Notes: generated from the sequence alone by a model not told the origin. 64,000 bases of DNA from Scenedesmus sp. PABB004 (GCA_014905635.1 JABVCE010000014.1:310001-374000), one strand, 5' to 3'. Positions 17,413-56,906 are shown, counted from the first letter of the stretch. Program-made: numbers and translations.

Positions 17413-18827
17413 ATGCAGCCACGCCAGCTCGACGCCACGCAAGTGCGGCCGGCCCGGCCACAGTCACTCCCCGCGTGCGCACGGCAGGAGCGGGCGCACG
17501 GCGGCAGGAGCGAGCGGGCCGCGGCGCTGCTGCCGCCCGTGCGCCGCAGCGCCCGCCTGCCCTCCGCCGAGCGCCGGTGAGTGTGTGACGTGACGGCAGC
17601 GCTGAGGGAGCCACCGCGGGCTGCGGCATGCTGCGCCGGGGCGCACCGCTGCTCTGGCCGGGTGACGCTCCGCTGCGAGCAGCGGCGCCCGGGTGACGCG
17701 ACGCGCTGCCGCGCACCGCCGCAGCCCCGGCGGCGCCGCCGCCGCGCTCGGGCCGTCTCCGGGCGTGCTGGCGACCTTTGTGTCGGAGCACCTGCTGCCG
17801 GGGCGGCCGCGGGCGCCGCGCCCGGCACGCCGCTCCACTTCCTCGCCGCGCACGGCGCCGGCGCGTTTGCCGCGCCGCTGCTCTGGGCGTGGGCGATCAC
17901 GTCGGCCATGCGCGCCCTCGCGGCGCACGCGCGCGCCTGGTGCGCCGAGAACACGCACCGCCCGATCTCGAGCGAGGTGCTGGGCATGCTGCCGTCGGCG
18001 CTCGAGGGCCCGACGGTGGCCACCGTCTGGGCGGTGCTGGCGCTGCGGTGCGCGGCGTGCTGGGGCCTGAGGCGCCCACGCGCGCTGGGCCGGCGGGGCG
18101 CGCCAGGGGCCGGGCGCGCGGCTGCGGTGCCCGCCGCCGCCGCGGCGCGCCCTGCCCACGCCCCGCGCCTGCCGCCCTCAGGCTGCTGCGCAACGCGGCG
18201 TGGCTGCTGGACCAGTACGTTCATGCCTTCAGCCCCTCCTTCAATCGCACCGTGGGCGCGTGCGCGGCGGTGCCGCCACAGCGGCGCCGCGCGGCCGCGC
18301 GGCCGCCCCGCGCGGGCGCGCGCCGGGGCGGCGCCCCGCCGCAACCCCGCCGCCACCGCCGCCGCCGCGCAGACGCGCTGGTCGAGGCGGTCTGCCAAGC
18401 GCTGTTCCACATCGACGCGGTGCTGCTCAAGGTGCGGGCGCTGCCTCAGCCGGCGCCGCCGTGCGGCGCGCGGCCTCGCCTGCTCCCGGCCCGCGGCGAC
18501 ACCTTCCCTGCTTCCCGCTCGCCCGCAGGTGTACGCGCTGCTCACGGTGGCATTTATCACGGGCGTGCTCGTGCGCTGGAAGACGATCGCGTTGGAGTTT
18601 TACTTGCTGCGCCGCCAGGTGAGCCTCGGCGGCGAGGGCGAGGCCCGCCGTCGCGTCCCCATGACGTGGTCTGCAACCGGCGCCGCGCCCGCCCGCCCGC
18701 AGGCCGAGGACGAGGCCGAGGCCGCGGCCGCGGCGGCCGCGGGCGGGGCCCGCGCGCGCACGCACATGCTGGGCACGCTGGACGACGTGGAGCGCCTGCT
18801 CGTGCCGCTCGACTCGTGAGGCGCCTG

Positions 18828-18860
<33 letters not shown>

Positions 18861-20339
18861 GCCGCCTGGTTTAGGGGGCCGCGGCAGCCTCTGCTGGGGC
18901 CGCTGCAGCGACCGGCCGCCGCCGCGACCACCGCCGCCGCTCCACAGCGTGAGCAGCTGGCTCGCGTACCTCGCGGCGGCGCTGGTGTGCGCGCAGCTGC
19001 TTGGCGTGAACCTCGCGCCGCTGCTCGCGGTCGGCGGCGTGAGCAGCATCATGATCGGCCTGTGAGTGCCGCGGCCAGACGAGATAGGGCCTTGCTTGCG
19101 TTGACGGCCAGACGCTCGGGCTCACCTGGCGTCGCGCGCCGCGCCCGCCGCGCTCACACGCGCAGGGGCACGCAGCAGCTGCTGCAGAACACCCTGATGG
19201 GTCTGTCCCTGGTGCGCGGGCGGGCGGCCCAGCGGGGTGTGTGTGTGGGGGGGGGGGGGGGGGGGGGGGGCACGGCGTGCGGCGCCCCCCCCCCCCCCCC
19301 CCTCCGACACACACACGCGCGCGCCCATCCGCCGCACCGCGCGCAGTTCCTGACGCGGCCCTTTGTCGCGGGCGACAGCGTGACGCTGCAGTCGGGCGGC
19401 GTCCTGCTGAGCGGTGCGCGCGCGCCGCCGTGCGGCGCCCCGCCCGGCCCCGGCCCCGCGCCGGCCCCTGCGCCGCGCGGCCGCGCACACGTGACCGCCG
19501 GCGCCGCGCACACACACAGGCGTCGTGGAGGCGGTCACGCCCATGCGCACGACGCTGCGCACCGACGACGACGCGGTGCTGACCATACCCAACAAGGCAC
19601 GCCGCGCCGCGCCCGCCTCAGCCCTGCGCCCGCCTGAACCCTGCGCCTGCGGCTCCGTCGCCTGGCTCATGCGCGCCGCGCCGCGCCGCGCCGCGCCGCG
19701 CCGCGCCGCCAGACGGTGGCCGACATGATTATTTTCAACCGGTCCACCAGCCTCAGCCGCAGCCGCCTCGCCAAGGCCAACCGGCGCGCAGAGGCGCTGA
19801 AGCTGCGCGTCAAGCTGCCGCACGCGTCGGTGCCGCGCCTGCCGGAGCTGCAGGCGGCGATCGAGGCGGTGCTCTGCGGCGGCGGCGCGGGCGGCGACGG
19901 CGGCGACGCGGGCGGCCGCCCCAGCGCCGCCGACCTGGCGCGCCTTGGCAGCGCCAGCCCGGGCGATGCCGGCAGCGGCAGCGACGCCGGCAGCAGCCTG
20001 GGGTCTGTGTTTGGGGAGGAGGGCGCCGCGTGGGCGCCGGGGCGCCCCGAGCTCGTCCGCCCTGGAAGCGTCGTGCTTCAGCTGACGAGGATGACCGACG
20101 CTGGGCTCGAGCTCCTGGTCAAGGGGCAGCTGCGCGTCGACCCGGCCAGCCCGGCGGTGCAGGTGGGCGGTGTGGTGTGCGTGCGCGGCGGGCGGGCAAG
20201 CGGGGCGCGGGCCGCCCGCCCGCGGGGGCACCCGGGCGGCACCCGACGCCCGTCGCCGCCCGCCTGCGGGCCGCAGGCGATGCAGCTGGAGCTGTCGCAG
20301 CGCGTGCGGGAGTTTGGCGCGACGCTGGTCAGCATGTGA
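17413..20339 (+). CDS. MscS-like mechanosensitive channel (multi-exon; 5' start uncertain, 17413-17700)
   Basis: LLGVNLAPLLAVGGVSSIMIGL..TQQLLQNTLMGLSL|FLTRPFVAGDSV...GVVEAVTPMRTTLRTDDDAVLTIPNK|TVADMIIFNRS matches the MscS TM3 and beta-domain signature. Stop TGA at 20339. Confidence 0.85.
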
Positions 20340-20409
20340 GGCGACAGCGAGTGGGTGGGAGCTGGAGCTGGAGCCGCAGCGCGCGCTGTGTGCACGTGCT
20401 GGCTAGCCC

Positions 20410-21130
20410 GCGATGTCGCCGCCGCCCAGCCCCCGCACGCGGGGCCGCTGGGACTGCGGCTCGCCGGCGCGTGCGCGTGAGCGACTGACTGCTTGGGGAG
20501 CTCGCGGGGAGCTGCGCGGCCGGTTTGGCTCGGTTGTAACCGGGGAGCGCGCAGGACGGCATCGAGTGGCAGCACGCACCGCCCGCCACGGGCACGCGGC
20601 AGCTGCCGCGCTGCGTCTGCAGACGCAGCGCACCCGGGCTGGCGCGACAGAGCTCGGGGGCCGCGTCCCGGCGACGCGGCGGCCCTGGTCGCCGCTGATC
20701 ACGGCGGTCGCCTCTTGACACCGGGCGCTGGTCCCGCCGAGGCCGGGTGAGCCCGTCCCAACGCGCGCTTCAGCCGCCCGGGCCGCCGCGGGGCAGCGAG
20801 TCGGCGAGCTCGGCCGGGCGCCACGGCGCGCCGGGCTGCAGCGGGCGCGAGGGGCCGCGTTGACGAGAGCGGCAGGACGTCGTCGCCCCGGGCCAGGGCA
20901 CGGTTCGGCGCTCCGGACGGAATTGTGGTCGCAGCATAGCTTGCATGACATTTCCGTGTGCCGCACGCGGCGGATGGCGGCCTGCGCAGCGAGCTGGTTG
21001 GGGACGCGACCGCCGGGCTGGCAAAAGTCCGCCACCCCTCCTCGCGCTGGCGCTCAACTACAGCGGCCCCGCGCCGCTCACCCTCAGTCTGTCAAGTCTG
21101 TCAGGTCTGTCAGGTCTTCCTTCCTGCGTC
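20410..21130 (+). repeat. Left arm of long inverted repeat (~720 bp)
   Basis: Reverse complement of 24194-24898. I count about 4 substitutions over the first ~660 bp, then indels near the inner end, where the left arm has a 3x GTCTGTCAR expansion. Confidence 0.97.
20535..20539 (+). terminator. TGTAA chlorophyte-type polyadenylation signal (candidate for the MscS-like gene; mirror copy at 24769-24773 for TSR1)
   Basis: TGTAA lies ~195 nt after the MscS stop and ~245 nt after the TSR1 stop on the respective sense strands. UGUAA is the known chlorophyte poly(A) signal. Confidence 0.55.
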
Positions 21131-21459
21131 AGACATGAAAGGTCGATTACAGTTCTGTCTGAGCCACAAAACTGTGTCCGCACCTTGGCGCGTACCATGA
21201 TGCGGCCTCCTGCGCCCAGCCAGCCACAGTGCGCAGCAGCACGAAACAGTCGCCAAGCACGGGTGGAACGGGGTGGACGCGCTGTGCGTATGTGTGCGCA
21301 ATGTAGGTTTGAGGGTGCGCACAGAGCAGGTTCAGGCCCTGCGCGCACGCTGAGCGAACCGCGCCGGCGGCGTTCATGCGCCGTGTGCGGCTCGCTAGAT
21401 CGGCTTGCTGCCAGCAGCAGCCAGCCGCAAAACTCCTCCGTTTGTTCTGTGTGTGTTTG

Positions 21460-21480
21460 AATCAATCAATCAATCAATCA
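21460..21480 (+). repeat. (AATC)5 microsatellite
   Basis: gaatcaatcaatcaatcaatca, read directly. Confidence 0.9.
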
Positions 21481-22893
21481 GCGCGCTGCGCTTATCTGAG
21501 CACACTCGTGTTCAAACAAGGCGGCAGCACGCCGTCAACGCCCAGTATTTCTAGAGGTCAACAGGTCCAGAAACCTGGCCTGGTGAGGGCCCTTGCAAAT
21601 CCATTGCAACGGCCCAGTCAGCAGCGCGGCGCCCAGTGCTGGGCGCCCAGTGCTGGGCGTGCGAGCGGGGGGACAGGCAGAGCCCGCGCTCAGGCCCCGC
21701 AGGCGCGGGCCGGGTGAGGGCTGGCTGGCGCGCTCCTGAGACCAGGCCAGAGACCAGGCCAGACCCAGCAGAACACACACACACCCGCACACAAGCACTC
21801 AGCTCTGCTGCTCTCAAAGCAGCAGCAGCCTCTGCACGCTCTGCAGGCAGGGGCCGGGGGCGCCGACTATGCAGTGCCGCGCGGCGCATGGGCAGCTTGG
21901 TGGTGCGCTCCAGGCAGGGCCAGCAGAGACAGCGGGCCATGCTTTCTTGTGGCCAGGCCGTGTTTGAATGCACAGCCGGTGTCAAGCAAATCAATCACCA
22001 GCCGCGCCGTCAGGTCGCAGCGTGGCAGCAGCCGCAGGAAGCGTGCCGCCGCGAGGCGCAGGGGGATCGAGCGTCGCCTGGGCGGTCGTGGTCGTGGCCG
22101 CCGGACAGCACTCAACGCAAAGCATGTGCGCTCACAGGGAAGCCATTGTGATCAGCACCTAAAACACGGACGGACAGAGCATAGTACGTGTGTGACAACC
22201 CGGCGCGATGATCGCACCGCGGGGAATGGAGCGTGCACTGAGCATGCCGTTGCCGTCGTGTCGCTGCCCCCAGGCGCAGGGGCACCACGCCTCTCCGCGA
22301 CAAGCACCCGCGGCCCTCGGGAGGCTCGGTGCTTGCTAGCACAAGCATGGCGCGCTTCCGGCGTGCGGCCCAAAGAAATGTGGTGCCTCCTCAGTACATT
22401 TGATACTGATGATGCGTGTGCACGCTCTGCGCGCAGCGCCTCACCAGATGCTGCGTGCAGTGGCCAGCGCCATGCTGCGCTGCTGTTCGATATCCGCCCG
22501 TCTCGGTCCGTGTGCTGGATGTTTAAACAATGCCACCCATGCCGTCCAGCTCGCAGGTACGGCGTGGTGGCAACAACAAAGGCCACCCGCGCCGCCGCAG
22601 CGCGTGCGCTCCGCTCACCCGCCGCACGCGGGCGGGTGCACACAGCACACACAACAGGAAGCAGCTAAAAGAAAGAAGTCGATGATGCACCAGTGCCGCG
22701 CTCCAGGCAGTGCACTCGGCTGCAGGGCTGCGGCCCGCACGTGGCTGGCCGGCGGGCGCGCCAGTCGCGTGCGGCGCACGCGCGAGCCCGAGCGCAGGTA
22801 TTGCAAGCTCATGCAGACCGACTCAGCCAGACCGATACAGTGCTGCTGGTTGCAGAAAGAAACTGCCGCGCCGGGGGCGCAGCGCGCGGAAGC

Positions 22894-23760
22894 TCAGGTG
22901 CTGGCTGGCTGCCAGCAGCTCGTGACCTCCTCGCCGTCGGCGTCCGTGTGGCAGCCCGCCGGCGCCTGCGGCGCGCACGCGACGCCGGCGGCGCGCAGCT
23001 GCTCGGCGCGCATGATCGCCGCGCCCAGCTGCATCGCGAGCTTGGTGCGGCGGATCGTGTCGGCCATCTCCTGCTCCGCCTGGTCCAGCACGTCCGCCGC
23101 CGCGGCGCAGTCGGGCGGCAGGCTGCAGGCCGCCTGCAGGCTCGCCATGGTCGCGCCCAGCGACTGGCACGCCAGCCCGATCGCGGTGTCCAGGTACGCG
23201 CTGCGGCGCTGCGCACACGCGGGGCGGGGCGGGGCGGGGCGGCGTGAGGCGCGCGCGCGCTGCGCGCGGGCGCAGCCAGCCGCCGCCGCCGGCCGGGGCG
23301 GCGCCTCACCTGCTGCACGGCGCTCTGCGGCTGGGCGCGGGTGGCGTTCCACGCCTGCTGCAGCTGCGCCGCGGCGGCGATGCCGTCCGCTGCCGTGGGC
23401 TGGGCGGTGAGCGCCGCCGCCGACTCGCTCGCCGCGCAGCTCAGCGACTCGGCGCCGCGCGGGCGGGCGTACGGCGCGTAGCGCGGCGCCGCCCAGCGGT
23501 GGCGCTCGCAGAGCCCGCTGGAGCTGCTGGACGGCTGCTCGGCCTGCGGGGTAGACGGCAGGGGCGGCAGCGCGTTCAGCAGCGGGACGCGTCACCGGCA
23601 TGCGTCACCGGCATGCGCGGCGCATCACCGCCGCCGGGCGCCGCCACGCGCGCGCGCTGCTCTCAGCTGTCAGGCGCACCTCGCGCGTGATCAGGGCGAG
23701 CTGCTTGGCCCCCGGGGCCACGAGCAGGGCGGGCGGGGCGGCCATGCGCGCAGAGGCCAT
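22894..23760 (-). CDS. Orphan hypothetical protein (~209 aa; exons 23760-23680, 23543-23310, 23208-22894) inside the inverted repeat
   Basis: Three exons joined by phase-0 GT-AG introns give an open frame: MASARMAAPPALLVAPGAKQLALITRE|AEQPSSSSSGLCERHRWAAPRYAPYARP...|RRSAYLDTAIGLACQSLG...DVLDQAEQEMADTIRRTKLAMQLG...WQPAST*. No recognisable domain. Confidence 0.65.
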
Positions 23761-24193
23761 GTTTGGTTTGCCAGGAATCGCCTGCGCGCGGTCGGAAGGG
23801 GCGCACATTCGCTCAGACCAGCTCGTCCCGGCGCCCGGGAGCGGCCAGCGTGGGGTCAGCGCGGCGGTGGTGCGGCCGGCAGTGACACAGCTGCCCCCGA
23901 CCGCTGGGGGCCACGCGCCGCTCGCGCGGCGTGTCTAGGCGCCGGCAGGCGCCTCTGACCCCCGACCCCAGCGCCGCGTGCGCGCCCCGGGACCGCTGCC
24001 CAACGGGGCCAGCCGGCAGCGGGCGGCGCCGATGGCGCGCCCGGCCGGCCGAGCGCGCCGCGCGCAGTCGCCTCGCACCTGTCAGGCAGCTAGGGCGCGT
24101 TCCGGCGCGTCGGCGCAGGCCGCGAGCGGCGCAAACGAGCAGGCCGGCGGGGTGTCGGGGTGTCGGGGCTCGAGGCTAAGCGCGGGGCTGCGC

Positions 24194-24898
24194 GACGCAG
24201 GAAGGAAGACCTGACAGAACTGAGGGCGGGCGGCGGCGGGGCCGCTGTAGTTGAGCGCCAGCGCGAGGAGGGGTGGCGGACTTTTGCCAGCCCGGCGGTC
24301 GCGTCCCCAACCAGCTCGCTGCGCAGGCCGCCATCCGCCGCGTGCGGCACACGGAAATGTCATGCAAGCTATGCTGCGACCACAATTCCGTCCGGAGCGC
24401 CGAACCGTGCCCTGGCCCGGGGCGACGACGTTCTGCCGCTCTCGTCAACGCGGCCCCTCGCGCCCGCTGCAGCCCGGCGCGCCGTGGCGCCCGGCCGAGC
24501 TCGCCGACTCGCTGCCCCGCGGCGGCCCGGGCGGCTGAAGCGCGCGTTGGGGCGGGCTCACCCGGCCTCGGCGGGACCAGCGCCGGGTGTCAAGAGGCGA
24601 CCGCCGTGATCAGCGGCGACCAGGGCCGCCGCGTCGCCGGGACGCGGCCCCCGAGCTCTGTCGCGCCAGCCCGGGTGCGCTGCGTCTGCAGACGCAGCGC
24701 GGCAGCTGCCGCGTGCCCGTGGCGGGCGGTGCGTGCTGCCACTCGATGCCGTCCTGCGCGCTCCCCGGTTACAACCGAGCCAAACCGGCCGCGCAGCTCC
24801 CCGCGAGCTCCCCAAGCAGTCAGTCGCTCACGCGCACGCGCCGGCGAGCCGCAGTCCCAGCGGCCCCGCGTGCGGGGGCTGGGCGGCGGCGACGTCGC
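24194..24898 (-). repeat. Right arm of long inverted repeat (~705 bp)
   Basis: Reverse complement of 20410-21130. The ORF track shows near-identical peptides on opposite strands (e.g. 20493..20750+ vs 24558..24815-). Confidence 0.97.
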
Positions 24899-25016
24899 CG
24901 CCAGCCGCGGCGCCTGACGGCGGACGGCCGCCCGCCGCGGACCGGCCAGCACAGCCCGCGCCGCAGCTCCCACGCCGCAGCTCCAGCTCCGGCTCCCGCT
25001 CAACGCGGCGCCGCGC

Positions 25017-27878
25017 TCACGCAAAGCTCGCCATGCCCAGCGCCGGCGCGGCGCCGCCGTGCGCGTCCGCGGCCGCCTCGCCGCCGCCGCCGCCGGGGGT
25101 GGGCCACTTGGGAAAGACGCGCTTGTAGAGGCTCACGCACACGGCGTCGCGCTGCGCGACGGGGCCGTCGAAGCGCGCCTTGAACGCGCCGTGCGTGCCG
25201 AGCGGCTCGGTGATGCGCCCGCGCCGGCCCGACTTGGTCCACAGCTCGAGCGGCTTGAACCAGCGCACGTCGTCGGGGCCGAAGAACATGAGCCGCACCA
25301 CCGCGCGCGTCTTGTTGACCCGCACCGGGTAGCCAGAGAGGACGACCTTCTTCACCACGACGCGGTCGGGGTCGACGCTGCGCAGCGCGCCCGCCGCCGC
25401 GAGCCGGGGGCGGCACCCGGGCTCGGCCTGCGCGCGGCGCGGCGGGCGGCGCGGCGCGGCGGGCTCAGCGGGCGCCGGCGCGCGGGCGCGCGCGGCCACG
25501 GGCGCGCGCGCCAGCCAGGGTTCAGCGCCCCCTGGGCCGCACCTTGAACGCGAGCAGCGGCAGCGGCGGGTAGCTGATCGGCGCGTAGACCGCGCCGACG
25601 CCGGGCTTGCCGGGGTGGAGGAAGCGCTCCATCTTGTGCTTGTCCGACCCGCCGCCGTCGTCGCTGAGCACGGGGCGCCCGCGCCACGCGCGCAGGCCCG
25701 TGACGAGCAGCAGCTCCTCCTTGGACGCGACCGCGTCGGCGTAGCCGGGCGCCTTTTTGAGCGAAAAGTTGACGACCGAGAGCTTCGCCTCGTGCTGCAG
25801 CAGGCCGTGCACCGTCAGCGGCGGCGGCCCCGCGCGCGGCGGCGCGCCGGGCGCCGGCGGCGGCGGCGGCGGCCCCGCGCGCGCGACCGCGGCGGCCGCG
25901 GCGGCCGCCGGCACGCCGGACAGCACGACCGTCACGTAGCTGCCCGGCGGCACGGCGCAGGGGTCGGTGCCCGCGGTCGCGCGCGCCTGGCGCGCGGCGG
26001 GCGGGGCGGGGCGGGCGGGGCGGGGCGGGCGCAGGCGGCGGGTGGGCGCCGCACGCGCGTGCGCGCGCGAGGGCACGCCTGGCGCGCCCCGGCCGCGCGG
26101 CGCGCGCCCCGGCCGCGCGGCGCGCGCCCCGCGGGGGCGGCTGGCGACTCACCGCCGCCTCGCGCGCGCGCTTGTGGGTACGCTTGAAATTCTCAAACGC
26201 AAAGACCCGGCCGTACTCAAGCGGCAGGCCCTCGCGCGCGTCCCAGGGGCTGCTGCGGAAGCTCTTCAGCCCCCTGCGCAGCGCCGGCCGCGCGCGGCGC
26301 CGCCGGCCAGTGGGCGCGCGCGGCGCGCGCTGGGGCCAGGCCGCGTCGCGCGGTGCGCAGAGCGCGCGGCGTGCGCGAGCGGGTGCGGGCGCCGCACCTG
26401 TACTTGGCAAAGCGCTGCCGCGCGGGCACGTCCTGCGGCGTGTCCACCTCGTCGGGGAACTCAGCGTCCTCCGCCTCGGCCTGCGGCGCGAGAGCCGCAG
26501 CACGGGCCGGGCCGGGCCGGGCCGGGCGGGGTTGAGCAGCGGCGCGTGCAGGCGGGCGCGGCGCTGCGCGGCGCAGCGGCGCCAGCGCCGCGCACCAGGC
26601 GCTTGGCTTTGAGCTCGTCGCGCAGGCGCCGCGCCGCGGCCTCCTCGGCCGCCTCGTCCTCCTCCATCGCCGCGCCGTCAGACTGCTCGCCCTCGCCGTC
26701 GCCCAGCGCCGCGCCGTCGTCGTCGTCGGCAGCGCCCGAGCCGCCGCCCTCGCTCAGCGGCACCGCCATGGCGGCGTCTGTGGCAGCGACGGCGCGCGCG
26801 GCACGGCGCGGGCGTGAGCAGCAGTTGGCGCGCATGCGTGCGGCGGGCGTGGGCCGGGCAGGAACCGGCGGCGAGCGAGGGAGCGCGCGGCGATCGGCGG
26901 CAGAAGTGTCCCATGGGTCCGACACAGGCGGCCAGGTGGAGTGTGGCGGCCTGCTTTAAGCCACGGTGTGCGCTCTGCCCTCCGCGTCCCCGCGAGCGGG
27001 GCCGCGTGCGGCTGCGGTGGGGCGCGCACCGCAGCCGCTGCGGGCGGGGGCGCGTGCGGCGCTGCACGGCGCGGCGCGGCGCGGCGCGGCGCGGCGCGGC
27101 GCGGCGCGGCGGGGCGTTGCGTGGCGCGGTGCGCGCTCACCCTCGCCGTCAGAGGCGCTGTCGTTGTCCTCGCCCGAGCTGCCCTCGTCGTCGTCCAGGA
27201 TCCAGGCAGCCTGGTACTCGCTGGTGCCTGCCAGCGGGGGGCGCAGCACGAGCGCGCAGGCGGGCGGGCGGGGCGCCGTCGGGCGCCCGCCGCGGCGCGG
27301 CGGCGCGGCGCGCGGGCGGGCGCGGCGGGGCCCCGCGCACCCGCTGGCAGGCGGCGCTTGCGCATCTTGCGCCCCGCCGCGGCGGCGGCAGCGGCGTCGG
27401 CGAGCTCCTCGTCGGTGGGCCACGTCTGCTCGCCTGCGCGGCGGGGCGGCGGCGGCGGCGGCACGAGCGCGTCGGCGGCGGCACAGGGGCCCGCGCGCAG
27501 GCAGCGGCGCGCGCGGCGCCGCGCCTCCCCTCCCTCCCTCCCGCCGCCGCACCGGCGAGGGGGTCGGGCTCATTCTCGCGGACGCACGGCTCCTGCTGCG
27601 CCGGGTCGGGCAGCGCCAGCACCGGCGCGGCGCCGCCGGCGTCGGCCATGTCGGCGTCGCCGGCGCCCGGCCCACGCTGCCCCCGCTGCTGCTGCTGCTG
27701 CTGCTGCTGCTGCCCGCCGCCGGGTCCGCCGGCGTCCATGTCGGGCGGGCCTTCGATGCGCGCGATGCGAAAGTCGCCGCCACCCGGCAGCGTGATGAGC
27801 TGGTTGGCCGACAGCCCCGCCGCGCGCACAAAGCCCGTGAGCCGCAGCTCGCCCAGCTGCTGCTGCGCGTCGCCGCCC

Positions 27879-32579: not shown

Positions 32580-33283
32580 ATGGCGCGCCCCCGCCGCTCC
32601 ACGCGGGCGCCCTCCCGCTACGTCGCCGACTCCATCGACCCCGAGGACGACGAGGAGTTCGCCGCCGCGCTGGAGGGCCGCACGCTGACGCGCAAGCGCC
32701 GGCGCGGCGCAGAGGCAGCGGCAGCGGCAGCGGGCGGCGACGACCCCGGCGCGGCGGCAGCCGCTGCCGCCGCGGCCGCGGGCGGCACGGAGGAGGAGGG
32801 CGACCCCGGCGCGGCGGCAGCAGCCGCGGCGGCCGCGGCCGGGGGCGGCGCCGAGGAGCACGACGAGGACGACCCGGGCGCCGCGGCGGCGGCCGCCGCC
32901 GCGGCCTGGGGCGGCGGCGCCGAGGAGGACGGCGGCCCCGCCGCCGCGGCCGCGGCCGCGGCCACGGCCGCCGCCGCGGCCGGGGACGAGGTGGAGGACG
33001 GCGACGCCGCGCCGGCGGCCAAGAAGGCGCGCAAGGCGCCCAAGAAGCCACGCGTCAACAACCGCCGGCTCTGCGCCAGCCGGGCGCGCGCTGCCTACGG
33101 CCTGAGCGACAAGGACCTGTGGAGCCTAACAGACGTGGAGTATGCGCCAAATCCCTACTACCCCCGCAGCGCGGCGCCGATGCGGCTCTACCTCGTGCGC
33201 GAGCTCCAGGTGCGCGGCGCGCCCCGCGCGCTCGGGGCTGCCCCTGGCGCGCGGCCGCCCTGCCGCCCTGGCCGCCCGGCGCT

Positions 33284-33347
<64 letters not shown>

Positions 33348-36207
33348 TGAGCGTGAGAGTGCGCGCCGCCGCAGGAGCTGGCGCGCGCCAAGGCGGAGCG
33401 CCTGGCCGCGCTGGGCGCGACCAAGGAGGAGCGCGCGGCGGCCAAGGCGGCCGAGGCCAAGGCGCGGCACGAGGCAGCCAAGGCGGCTGCGGCGGAGGCG
33501 CTGGCGCGCATGCGTGAGCCGCGGCGGCGCCGGCGCGCGCGCGCCGCTGCCCTGGTGCTGCCCCCCCCCCCCCCCCCCGCGTGTCGGCGGCCCTGCCCAG
33601 CCACACCTCACGCGCGCCGCCGCGCCCCGGCCCGCGCAGCGGGCCACGGCGCCAAGGCGGCTCGCACGGGCGACGACCGGCACGGCTCCGTGGCACTGCC
33701 GGACACCACCCTGGACAAGGTCATGGTCTGCATTGCGCGCACGCTGGAGCCCGGCGGCGTGCGCGGGCCCAGCCTCGTCGCGCGCGACCTGGGCAGCGCG
33801 TCGCTGGTGCGCCGCGCCGCGCCGCGCAGTGCGGCGCCGCGCAGCGCCGCGCAGCGCGGCCCGCTGCCCGCCCTGGCCGCGCGCCCCGCGGCGGCGGCGG
33901 CGCGCCCTGCAGCTGCTGCGCCCGACCTGCGCCTCGCTGCTCCCGGCGCTCTCTCGTAGGTCTGCTGGGACTTCCACAACGCGGCGGGGGCCGGCTTTGC
34001 CGCGCTGGCGGAGGAGGTCGCGCGCAGGCCGCAGGTGGTCAGCCCAAGCAACGTGGGCTGGTATGACATCACGCGCACCTCGGTGCTGCCCGCCCTGTGG
34101 GCCCTGCCCGGCGACCCGGCCCTCGGCGGCTGGCCATTCTGGCAGTCCGTCGTGAGCGCGCCCGCGGCGCTGACGGTGCCGCAGCTGAAGGCCGCTGCGC
34201 GGCACCTCGGCTTGACGGTGAGCGCGCCGCCCCTGTCGCCACTGTGCTGCCGGCGGCGGGTGCGGCGCGCTCGCAGCCCTGAGCGCGCCGCTGCTGCGCG
34301 CCGCAGGTGACCGGCACCAAGGCGGAGCTCGTGCTGCGCGTGCTCGGAGGCTTTGGGCTCTCGGCGCCGACTGTGGCACCCGCGCAGCTGCTCCGCGCGC
34401 TCCTGCTCGAGCGCAGCAGCGAGTTTGTCGCGTACGAGGTGCCGTGGCCCGGCAGCCGCAACTGGCGGGAGGACTCGCCGCTGTTCAAGGCAGTCTGTGA
34501 CATCCAGTGCTCGGGGAGCGAGGTCTGCGATCTGCGAAACGCCACGGTGCGGCGGGTCTGGCGCTCGCTGCAGGGTGTGCGCCGCCTGGTGCCGCGGCAG
34601 CCCGCCGCGACCGGCCGCGCCGCCGCGTCACAGCCCGCCGCGACCGGCCACGCCGCACGCCGCGCCCGCAGGCCAAGGGCCTCGCCGGGCTGCGCGCGGC
34701 GCTCACGGCCGCGGGGCTGGCGAGCATGCCCGAGCTGCTCGCGGAGGCGCAGCGCGCACGGGCGCGCGCGGAGGCGGCGCGCCGCGCGGAGGAGCTGCGC
34801 CGCCAGCAGGCGGAGGAGCGCCGCCGCCAGCAGGCGGAGGAGAGGCGCCGCCAGCAGGCGGAGCGCGACCGCCAGCAGGCGGAGGAGCGCCGCCGCCAGC
34901 AGGCGGAGCTGAACCGCCAGCGGGCGGAGCTGTACGGTCAGCAGGGAGGGCCGTACGGCCAGCAGGGGGAGCCGCACGGCCAGCAGGGGGAGCCGTACGG
35001 CCAGCAGGGGGGGCTGTACGGCCAGCAGGGGGGGCTGTACGGCCAGGGAAAGAAGAAGAAAAAGCGGGGCGGGCGCCGCAACAGGGGCCGCCGCACGGGC
35101 GAGTTTGGCCAGGCGCCGCCGCCAGCCTGGCCGGGGGCGGCCGAGGCCGCCGCGGCCGCCGCCGCGGCCGCCGCGGCCGCCGCCGCGGCCGTCGCGCAGC
35201 CGGCGCACGGCGCAGAGGGGCTCGGCGCGCCCGCCGCGCCGGCGGCCGAGGGCGGTGCAGGCGAGGCCGCGCCTGCGCAGCCGGCGGCCGGCCTGGAGGG
35301 GGTCAGCGTGCCCGCCGCGCCGGTGGCCGAGGGCGGCGCAGGCGAGGCCGCGGCCGCGCAGCCGGCGCACGGCGCAGAGGGGCTCGGCGCGTCCGCCGCG
35401 CCGGCGGCCGAGGGCGGCGCGGGCGAGGCCGCGCCTGCGCAGCCGGCGCACGGCGCAGAGGGGCTCAGCGTGCCCGCCGCGCCGGCGGCCGAGGGCGGCG
35501 CGGGCGAGGCCGCGCCTGCGCAGCCGGCGCACGGCGCAGAGGGGCTCAGCGTGCCCGCCGCACCGGCGGCCGAGGGCGGCGCGGGCGAGGCCGCGCCTGC
35601 GCAGCCGGCGGCCGGCCTGGAGGGGGTCAGCGTGCCCGCCGCGCCGGTGGCCGAGGGCGGCGCGGGCGAGGCCGCGGCCGCGCAGCCGGCGGCCGGCCTG
35701 GAGGGGCTCAGCGTGCCCGCCGCACCGGCGGCCGAGGGCGGCGCGGGCGAGGCCGCGCCTGCGCAGCCGGCGGCCGGCCTGGAGGGGCTCAGCGTGCCCG
35801 CCGCACCGGCGGCCGAGGGCGGCGCGGGCGAGGCCGCGCCTGCGCAGCCGGCGGCCGGCCTGGAGGGGGTCAGCGTGCCCGCCGCGCCGGTGGCCGAGGG
35901 CGGCGCGGGCGAGGCCGCGGCCGCGCAGCCGGCGCACGGCGCAGAGGGGCTCGGCGCGTCCGCCGCACCGGCGGCCGAGGGCGGCGCGGGCGAGGCCGCG
36001 CCTGCGCAGCCGGCGCACGGCGCAGAGGGGCTCAGCGTGCCCGCCGCGCCGGCGGCCGAGGGCGGCGCAGGCGAGGCCGCGGCCGCGCAGCCGGCGCACG
36101 GCGCAGAGGGCCTCGGCGCGCCCGCCGCGCCGGCGGCCGAGGGCGGCGCGGGCGAGGCCGCGGCCACGCAGCCGGCGGCCGGCCCGGAGGGGCTCGGCGC
36201 GCAGTGA
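32580..36207 (+). CDS. Multidomain protein: XPA C-terminal-like + F-box-like + SAP domain + repetitive C-terminus
   Basis: XPA-C-like LCASRARAAYGLSDKDL..PNPYYPRSAAPMRLYLVREL. F-box-like LPDTTLDKVM..DLGSASL|VCWDF. SAP LTVPQLKAAARHLGLT|VTGTKAELVLRV. NLS-like KKKKKR. Stop at 36207. Confidence 0.65.
34932..35047 (+). repeat. 21-bp coding tandem repeat (GQQGGxY/GQQGEPx, ~5.5 copies)
   Basis: tacggccagcaggggg... units encode YGQQGGP/YGQQGEP/HGQQGEP/YGQQGGL. Confidence 0.9.
35197..36204 (+). repeat. 81-bp coding tandem repeat, 12 full copies plus a partial (27-aa unit QPAHGAEGLSVPAAPAAEGGAGEAAPA)
   Basis: Unit starts at 35197 and 36169 are exactly 12x81 apart. Two interleaved variants (HGAEGL vs AGLEGV). 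Confidence 0.97.

Positions 36208-53247: not shown

Positions 53248-56906
<3,659 letters not shown>

Follow-up and report, generated by a model that had tools for sequence, protein, structure and literature searches.

An inverted segmental duplication behind two convergent genes in Scenedesmus sp. PABB004, probably homogenised by gene conversion

What is a gene that sits between two long, nearly identical inverted repeats: the cargo of a mobile element, the invertible part of a switch, or the bystander of an ordinary rearrangement? The question is raised by a locus in the green alga Scenedesmus sp. PABB004 (GCA_014905635.1), where two copies of a 0.7-kb sequence, here called the left and right arms, face each other across a single annotated gene, HT031_004431, and lie behind the stop codons of two convergent neighbours, an MscS-like gene and TSR1. 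All positions refer to the 64-kb stretch that was analysed, hereafter the window, which is free of N and has an overall guanine-plus-cytosine (GC) content of 78.8%. For the genome as a whole, 39.8 Mb in 77 contigs are reported, with 78.5% GC, 7,092 genes and a repeat content of 1.31% (PMC12571836). Public data of independent origin came from three freshwater-metagenome runs, X1 to X3 (small shares of 0.17, 0.14 and 0.08), whose Logan contigs over 18000-27000 are at most 636 nt long, none of them crossing a whole arm. Queries with the strain name and for inverted duplications in green algae, supplements aside, returned no description of the locus, and those on green algae nothing on repeats of such small size. 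The reading that we favour, with a probability of roughly 60%, is a segmental duplication that is not mobile: about 0.75 kb of non-coding 3'-flanking DNA would be present in two inverted copies, which would have been homogenised by gene conversion and would make the segment between them passively invertible.

The arms themselves are readily delimited. Without gaps, a repeat finder pairs 20410-21072 with 24236-24898, two stretches of 663 nt that are 99% complementary, differ by four substitutions and have 3163 nt between them, which confirms the near-perfect 0.7-kb inverted repeat with about four substitutions in some 660 bp that had been described from the sequence beforehand. Once gaps are allowed, the homologous arms extend over 20410-21130 on the left and 24194-24898 on the right (aligned with MAFFT; blastn gives 722 columns at 96.7% identity). 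A base-by-base walk along this alignment places the substitutions between the arms at 20414, 20723, 20756, 20876, 21078 and 21080, to which are added an indel of 1 nt at 21072/24236 and a surplus of 17 nt in the left arm (21089-21105) that represents the expansion of a 9-nt unit. The last two substitutions and both indels are clustered at the inner end of the arm. The 20410/24898 pair is the sole dispersed repeat of at least 100 nt in the window, the other long self-matches being an 81-nt tandem array and a (GT)n microsatellite. Codon periodicity is lacking at 20355-22921 and at 23760-25051, whereas the neighbouring exons have a third-position GC of 0.95-1.0, and it is on account of this lack that the two arms and the adjoining 1.76-kb low-GC stretch are considered non-coding. 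Exons are conspicuous by their periodicity here, since third codon positions are almost pure G or C in such a GC-rich genome. The arms gave no Pfam match, no Rfam match at E≤1 and no transfer RNA gene with ARAGORN.

What happens at the outer ends of the arms is central to their interpretation. The left arm begins 70 nt past the stop codon of the MscS-like gene and the right arm 118 nt past that of TSR1, and part of this intervening DNA is itself related. In a local alignment in the inverted sense, the left outer extension (20356-20408) matches the right one (24944-24997, aligned from 24997 to 24944) in 42 of 55 columns, or about 76%, with a score of 40; dinucleotide shuffles reach 22.1 ± 3.9 and none of 500 attains 40. 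When the extensions were compared with other parts of the window, the score was equalled in 0 of 2643 controls with the left flank held fixed, in 12 of 2627 with the right flank held fixed and in 55 of 2975 random pairs. The dodecamer GGAGCTGGAGCT, i.e., (GGAGCT)2, belongs to a (GGAGCT)n tract in the left extension and has just two occurrences in the window, one at 20358 (plus strand) and the other, in reverse complement, at 24979. Between the right arm and its extension lie 45 nt (24899-24943) that have no counterpart on the left and correspond to an indel. The inner flanks of the arms, on the other hand, are unlike each other, the observed score being attained by 340 of 500 shuffles. The inverted homology therefore has two levels, one of about 76% that probably stretches to within some 17-20 nt of each stop codon, and one of 99.4% that sets in abruptly at 20410 and 24898. 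A step in identity that lies inside an older repeat fits the edge of a gene-conversion tract, and it is the opposite of what is seen at the termini of a transposon.

A related strain provides a measure of how old the repeat is and of how its arms have since behaved. Runs X1 and X2 hold sequence of a strain that is 94-99% identical to the window, with contigs at 21105-22725, 23619-23917 and 24076-24329 and an arm piece at 20800-21008. Two contigs, X1 record 3 and X2 record 8, cross the left inner border, and a third, X1 record 7 at 24076-24329, crosses the right one. With both junctions between interior and arm present in independent contigs, the structure is not to be taken for an assembly artefact, and because the related strain shares both inner junctions the repeat is older than the split between the strains. 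Long-read assemblies are known to contain false palindromic joins, and the outer junctions are unconfirmed under the mapping tool's 31-letter rule, both of which would suit a fold-back or chimeric join. Yet the arms differ by six substitutions and two indels, 3.1 kb of unique spacer with a well-formed gene lies between them, the Logan contigs that cross the two inner junctions come from two metagenome runs, and X3, whose pieces are 100% identical to the window, includes one at 20390-20592 with the T at 20414 that is specific to the left arm. We hold an artefact to be extremely improbable.

Across the 209 positions of 20800-21008, the related strain departs from the window 6 times, as against a single difference (at 20876) between the window's own two arms. 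We modestly favour the view that the arms were homogenised after the strains had separated; the ongoing homogenisation that the original prediction had put forward as one of two options, the other being a very recent origin, gains from this comparison and from the identity step at the outer arm ends. The depth of the metagenome contigs, a rough proxy rather than a copy number, is 6.04 (X1) and 2.8 (X3) for arm contigs and 3.6-5.5 and 2.6-3.0, respectively, for contigs of the interior and flanks, and nothing in these values suggests a high-copy family of arms.

Could the segment nevertheless be a non-autonomous DNA transposon that has taken up a host gene between 0.7-kb terminal inverted repeats, something akin to a Pack-MULE or a foldback element? 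Long and almost identical inverted ends around 3 kb would be in keeping with it, as would a spacer whose composition is unusual for the genome and a weak direct repeat, GCYAGCC, that is matched in 6 of 7 positions one base outside each arm. This repeat (GCTAGCC at 20402-20408 against GCCAGCC at 24900-24906) is the best candidate for a target-site duplication, and by our estimate from base composition it stands at about chance level; a perfect duplication of 8-11 bp at the arm flanks does not occur. As had been noted from the sequence at the outset, then, neither a target-site duplication nor a transposase, recombinase or reverse transcriptase is seen, and of the 34 stop-to-stop open reading frames on both strands of 20332-24914 not one matches any Pfam family (E≤0.01). 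The termini, which in a transposon with terminal inverted repeats are the best-conserved part and mark the end of homology, are here the least conserved, and degraded homology of about 76% runs on for some 53 nt beyond them. Nor are the arms built largely of tandem subrepeats as in foldback elements, Tandem Repeats Finder returning only short repeats of two copies and a 9-nt unit of 3.6 copies at the inner end of the left arm. No further copy is present in the 64 kb, an exact search with a 22-mer of the arm found no match in JGI metagenome contigs, and the arm contigs have about single-copy depth. The gene inside is intact, has introns as well as homologues in other Scenedesmaceae, and turned up in no second copy. 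If the segment had been inserted, only some 35 nt of the original DNA would separate the two convergent stop codons, and the genome is very low in repeats. We consider a transposon improbable, and the non-autonomous cargo element that had been offered as one of the two initial readings is not borne out.

The remaining known architectures differ in what they leave behind. For a DIRS-like retroelement one would look for open reading frames of reverse transcriptase/RNase H and of a tyrosine recombinase and for an internal complementary region; none of the 34 reading frames qualifies, and there is no internal match to the arm ends. A site-specific switch of the Hin, Gin or Flp type would bring its recombinase gene and short recombination sites, whereas the segment has no recombinase gene, its neighbours are the MscS-like gene and TSR1, and its repeats are 0.7 kb long. 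A scan for promoters and terminators of bacterial type gave nothing meaningful for a eukaryote. What the locus does possess is the structure that underlies inversion by non-allelic homologous recombination (NAHR), namely two long, highly identical inverted repeats around unique DNA, with a spacer of 3.1 kb, and also that of a staggered-break inversion, in which a segment carries inverted copies of non-repetitive DNA at either end.

We propose the following course of events. Copies of the arm would have come to lie directly behind the stop codons of the MscS-like gene (plus strand) and TSR1 (minus strand) and would bracket one resident unit, HT031_004431. Intrachromosomal gene conversion would then keep the copies 99% alike, with the edges of the converted tract at 20410 and 24898. 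Resolution of the same intermediates by crossover would occasionally invert the 3.1-kb interior, an event that we picture as rare, passive and nearly neutral and not as a regulated switch; near-neutrality is expected because every gene keeps its own flanks. The duplication itself could have arisen through template switching or as a by-product of one staggered-break inversion, two routes that the data do not separate.

The second of these routes may also be taken as a complete explanation. Staggered-break inversions are reported to leave inverted duplications of single-copy DNA at their breakpoints (PMC3355041), and the locus would on this account be the scar of one past inversion, with staggered single-strand breaks around a single-copy segment of about 0.75 kb and a second break beyond the HT031_004431 unit. 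The interior, which is exactly one transcription unit, the position of both inner borders between units and the lack of transposon features all speak for such a history. Arms born in this way should, however, have been uniformly alike, so that additional events are needed to account for the divergence of the outer 53 nt and for the indel of 45 nt, and no relative that might show the ancestral orientation with a single copy came from the metagenome scans. As the sole explanation a past inversion seems unlikely to us. It is in effect a variant of the origin step in the duplication and conversion model that we favour, and is compatible with later gene conversion.

A different matter is whether inversion of the interior would have a function. 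In a flip-flop switch, orientation would alter expression, for instance because HT031_004431 would come to lie in tandem with the MscS-like gene and no longer with TSR1, or because read-through and antisense transcription would change. Arms of 0.7 kb with 99% identity and a spacing of 3.1 kb are well able to support homologous inversion, the signs of gene conversion imply that they interact, and inversions mediated by inverted repeats are reported to recur often in primates (PMC3961182). Against a switch, there is no recombinase gene in or beside the segment, and no on/off logic is visible for the switchable cassette that was the other initial reading, as HT031_004431 would take 433 nt of upstream DNA and its downstream DNA along in either orientation and each neighbour would retain the same arm. 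None of the contigs spans an arm and could show the orientation. A functional switch is in our judgement decidedly improbable.

One configuration in the metagenome data was considered as a sign of inversion and rejected. X1 and X2 contain an opposite-strand joint from 21105 to 24221, with sides of 109 and 78 letters, which is explained by a left arm of the related strain that is without the 17-nt expansion and has the right-arm alleles at 21072-21080; for these two reasons the aligner placed the related strain's left arm on the right arm. The variants at the inner end of an arm travel with their end of the interior in either orientation. Other joints, with sides of 20-24 letters, resemble other GC-rich organisms or repeats and were set aside.

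The nature of the enclosed gene is relevant to all of these readings. The interior holds one gene of three exons on the minus strand, with exon 1 at 23760-23680 (ATG at 23760-23758), exon 2 at 23543-23310 (third-position GC 0.95-1.0, GT..AG borders) and exon 3 at 23208-22894 (third-position GC 1.00, stop at 22894-22896). The model agrees with the 209-residue hypothetical protein HT031_004431 annotated at NCBI, to which the translation of exon 3, used as the query, is 100% identical. Upstream, unique sequence without codon periodicity (23761-24193) that is unlike the other inner flank forms the putative promoter region. In the related strain, exon 1 carries three replacement and two silent changes by our reading of the codons. 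Word-indexed searches of 5.8 billion proteins returned only the protein itself and thus no close paralogue or orthologue, whereas phmmer against 1.84 billion cluster representatives added six proteins at E≤1e-3, of which two reached about 6e-11. These distant homologues comprise Tetradesmus obliquus A0A383VWJ6 and proteins from JGI/IMG or Logan. The initial description as a clean three-exon orphan gene was therefore correct as to the exons, while the word orphan proved too strong.

The seven-row alignment of these proteins shows a conserved C-terminal half, in which a helical pair is followed by an acidic tail, E-D-G-E-E-V-x-S-x-W-x-P. An AlphaFold2 model built on this alignment has a mean predicted local distance difference test (pLDDT) score of 63.8, with confident helices at residues 78-97, 100-133 and 140-178 and 76 N-terminal residues predicted to be disordered. 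Foldseek of the model against the PDB gave no match at E≤0.001, the ESM Atlas offered no usable feature match and only structural neighbours with TM≤0.37, and the only Pfam family to appear was Lipase_3, below threshold (E=0.047; 14 bits against a cut-off of 22). A protein-guided scan of JGI metagenome contigs, for which poly-Q patterns had been chosen, found relatives encoded in 0 of 597 stretches. HT031_004431 is, as far as its sequence and predicted fold allow it to be classified, a complete, apparently single-copy and helical hypothetical protein restricted to the Scenedesmaceae, and a captured gene fragment is excluded.

Between this gene and the left arm lies a long spacer of low GC. The longest low-GC stretch of the window, 20900-22700, has a GC content of 58-69% in 300-nt windows, whereas the right third of the interior (23000-24193) has 75-82%, the same as the flanks; the earlier remark that the interior is less GC-rich than its surroundings thus applies to the former part and not to the latter. 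The spacer downstream of HT031_004431 (21131-22893, minus strand), a putative long 3' untranslated region (UTR) or simply intergenic DNA, ranges from 49 to 80% in 120-nt windows, mostly below 72%, and is without codon periodicity. Within it the related strain has indels that would break any reading frame (1, 1, 4, 1, +1, 5, +4 and 6 nt), and in both X1 and X2 the 122 nt at 22270-22391 are exchanged for 14 other letters, with small indels nearby. The spacer is to all appearances unconstrained. A suppression of GC-biased gene conversion as the reason for its low GC was ruled out, because the exons of the same interior keep a third-position GC of about 1.0.

The two neighbours converge on the repeat. 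To the left is the 3' part of the MscS-like gene (19495-20339, plus strand, stop at 20337-20339), assigned by a Pfam match to MS_channel_2nd over 19495-19725 that lies just above its cut-off (E=3.4e-4), with third-position GC periodicity up to 20355; in the region of this gene, at 19211-19338, there is a low-complexity hairpin composed of (GT)n, about 24 G, a short spacer, about 18 C and (AC)n, with arms of 35-54 nt that are 72-91% complementary, which is probably intronic. To the right is the last coding part of TSR1 (25017-25814, minus strand, stop at 25017-25019), with a Pfam match to RIBIOP_C (E=2.9e-44) and the same type of periodicity. As the genes are convergent and the arms inverted, both genes read the same arm sequence in the sense direction after their stop codons.

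Each arm carries one TTGTAACC, in sense for both neighbours. These TGTAAC motifs, candidate polyadenylation signals, are at 20535-20540 on the plus strand, 196 nt past the stop of the MscS-like gene, and at 24768-24773 on the minus strand, 244 nt past that of TSR1. Among expressed sequence tags of Scenedesmus obliquus, UGUAAC is reported as the commonest hexamer near or before poly(A) sites, at 52.1% (PMC1868727). A minus-strand TGTAA at 21147-21151, which lies 16 nt away from where the left arm ends on its inner side, is a candidate signal for the interior gene; it would fit a poly(A) site of HT031_004431 after a 3' UTR of 1.74 kb, and if it does serve as such, a single transcription unit fills the interior exactly, from 24193 to 21131. 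We infer that the MscS-like gene and TSR1 most likely use the arms as a common 3' UTR and terminator, because TSR1, which acts in ribosome biogenesis, needs a working 3' end. TGTAA is the usual polyadenylation signal of chlorophytes, and an alga of such extreme GC content may use a different or degenerate 3'-end signal.

Shared 3' ends invite one further thought, which is that the gene flips between its convergent neighbours as a module, that both orientations occur in nature, and that read-through, from TSR1 or from the gene's own promoter, produces a 0.7-kb double-stranded RNA hairpin and small RNAs that match both 3' UTRs. Flipping would then be harmless to the neighbours, since the arms would be their shared 3' UTRs, and the expression of three unrelated genes would be coupled through one structure. 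We regard such a module as highly improbable.

Several points count against the interpretation as a duplication maintained by gene conversion and used as shared 3' ends. The interior differs between the strains by 1.0% to 5.8%, and at the low end of this range 4 differences in 663 nt are not significantly below expectation; the metagenome contigs have a depth of 2-6, moreover, and some of the strain differences may be errors. The outer junctions between arm and flank are without independent confirmation, as X3 record 19 reaches only 20 nt past 20410 and so falls short of the 31 letters required. The outer extension, from which an older repeat is deduced, measures 53 nt including a hexamer microsatellite, and in one control its score is attained by 1.8% of random pairs. 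The count of arms covers the 64-kb window, and dispersed copies may exist elsewhere in the genome. The model leaves the length and low GC of the spacer at 21131-22893 unaccounted for, and this stretch may be a long 3' UTR or the remnant of an old insertion. Lastly, TGTAA is rare, with four sites in 64 kb (20535 and 58687 on the plus strand, 21151 and 24773 on the minus strand), and 11 of 13 other non-coding gaps are without TGTA or GTAA on either strand. TGTAA as the general poly(A) signal of this organism is therefore unsupported in the window, TGTAAC may not be that signal either, and the 3'-UTR role of the arms is to be read as putative.

The arrangement shares individual features with several known systems. 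Pack-MULEs, foldback elements and other transposons with long terminal inverted repeats have long inverted ends with host sequence inside and need no transposase within. The PABB004 locus likewise encloses host-like coding sequence between long inverted ends with no transposase inside, but it differs in having no target-site duplication and no family of copies in the 64 kb, in that its termini are its least conserved part and its arms, the 3.6-copy unit aside, are without subrepeats, and in that its cargo is a whole, conserved, single-copy gene that has its own flanking DNA. DIRS retroelements have inverted terminal repeats and make no target-site duplications. The resemblance to them consists in inverted ends of several hundred base pairs and the missing duplication, and it ends at the absence of reverse transcriptase, RNase H and tyrosine recombinase domains and of an internal complementary region or any further long internal repeat. 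In the methylotrophic yeasts Ogataea polymorpha and Komagataella phaffii, an induced flip-flop inversion moves one of two MAT loci into silencing near a centromere or telomere. Here, too, inverted repeats surround a segment of the kind that in those yeasts inverts by homologous recombination, whereas no silencing asymmetry, second gene copy or induction is evident.

Closest in its workings is inversion by NAHR between inverted repeats, which is well studied in primates and reported to recur commonly there (PMC3961182). Both cases involve two highly identical, inverted low-copy repeats around a unique gene-bearing segment, for which conversion and passive, recurrent inversion are to be expected. 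Unlike the primate cases, the algal one has arms of 0.72 kb and a spacer of 3.1 kb in a haploid-sized genome, its arms are the 3' flanks of convergent genes, and it is known from one orientation. The staggered-break inversions of Drosophila (2h and 2q of D. mojavensis; PMC3355041) are comparable in that about 1 kb of single-copy DNA is described as duplicated in inverted sense with no transposon involved. Those are chromosomal inversions of at least hundreds of kilobases with decaying duplicates, as opposed to one 3-kb gene unit with arms that look homogenised in PABB004.

Other repeats in the window stand apart from this locus. A tandem array at 35147-36199 comprises 13.0 copies of an 81-nt unit with 90% matches and no indels; since 81 nt is a multiple of three and plus-strand coding periodicity is adjacent, it may encode a 27-residue protein repeat. 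GC-rich tandem repeats at 32741-33020 (periods of 63 and 69 nt) and 34850-35046 (21, 42 and 63 nt) lie within plus-strand coding periodicity, and with periods that are all multiples of three they probably encode repetitive protein sequence. At 54271-54423, a low-GC patch contains a perfect (GT)76 microsatellite, 153 nt in length. Pentanucleotide arrays of the CGCGC/GCGCG type at 19672-19709 and 27056-27128, outside the main repeat and 7.4 kb apart, are perfect reverse complements over 38 nt and most likely represent independent microsatellites.

Taken as it stands, the locus is an ordinary structural variant, and nothing marks it as a new mobile element or a regulatory switch. What is notable is that two convergent genes share their 3' flanks by way of a small inverted segmental duplication, and this in a genome that is extreme in GC (78.5%) and almost free of repeats (1.31%). 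Small inverted duplications that bracket a gene feed recurrent inversions and concerted evolution, and for green algae there is little documentation of them. Should the two neighbours indeed use the arms as a common 3' UTR, nature would here present a clear-cut example of a terminator that rearrangement duplicated and gene conversion has preserved, and the locus would offer a handy place at which to determine the rates of homologous inversion and conversion in a Scenedesmus strain.

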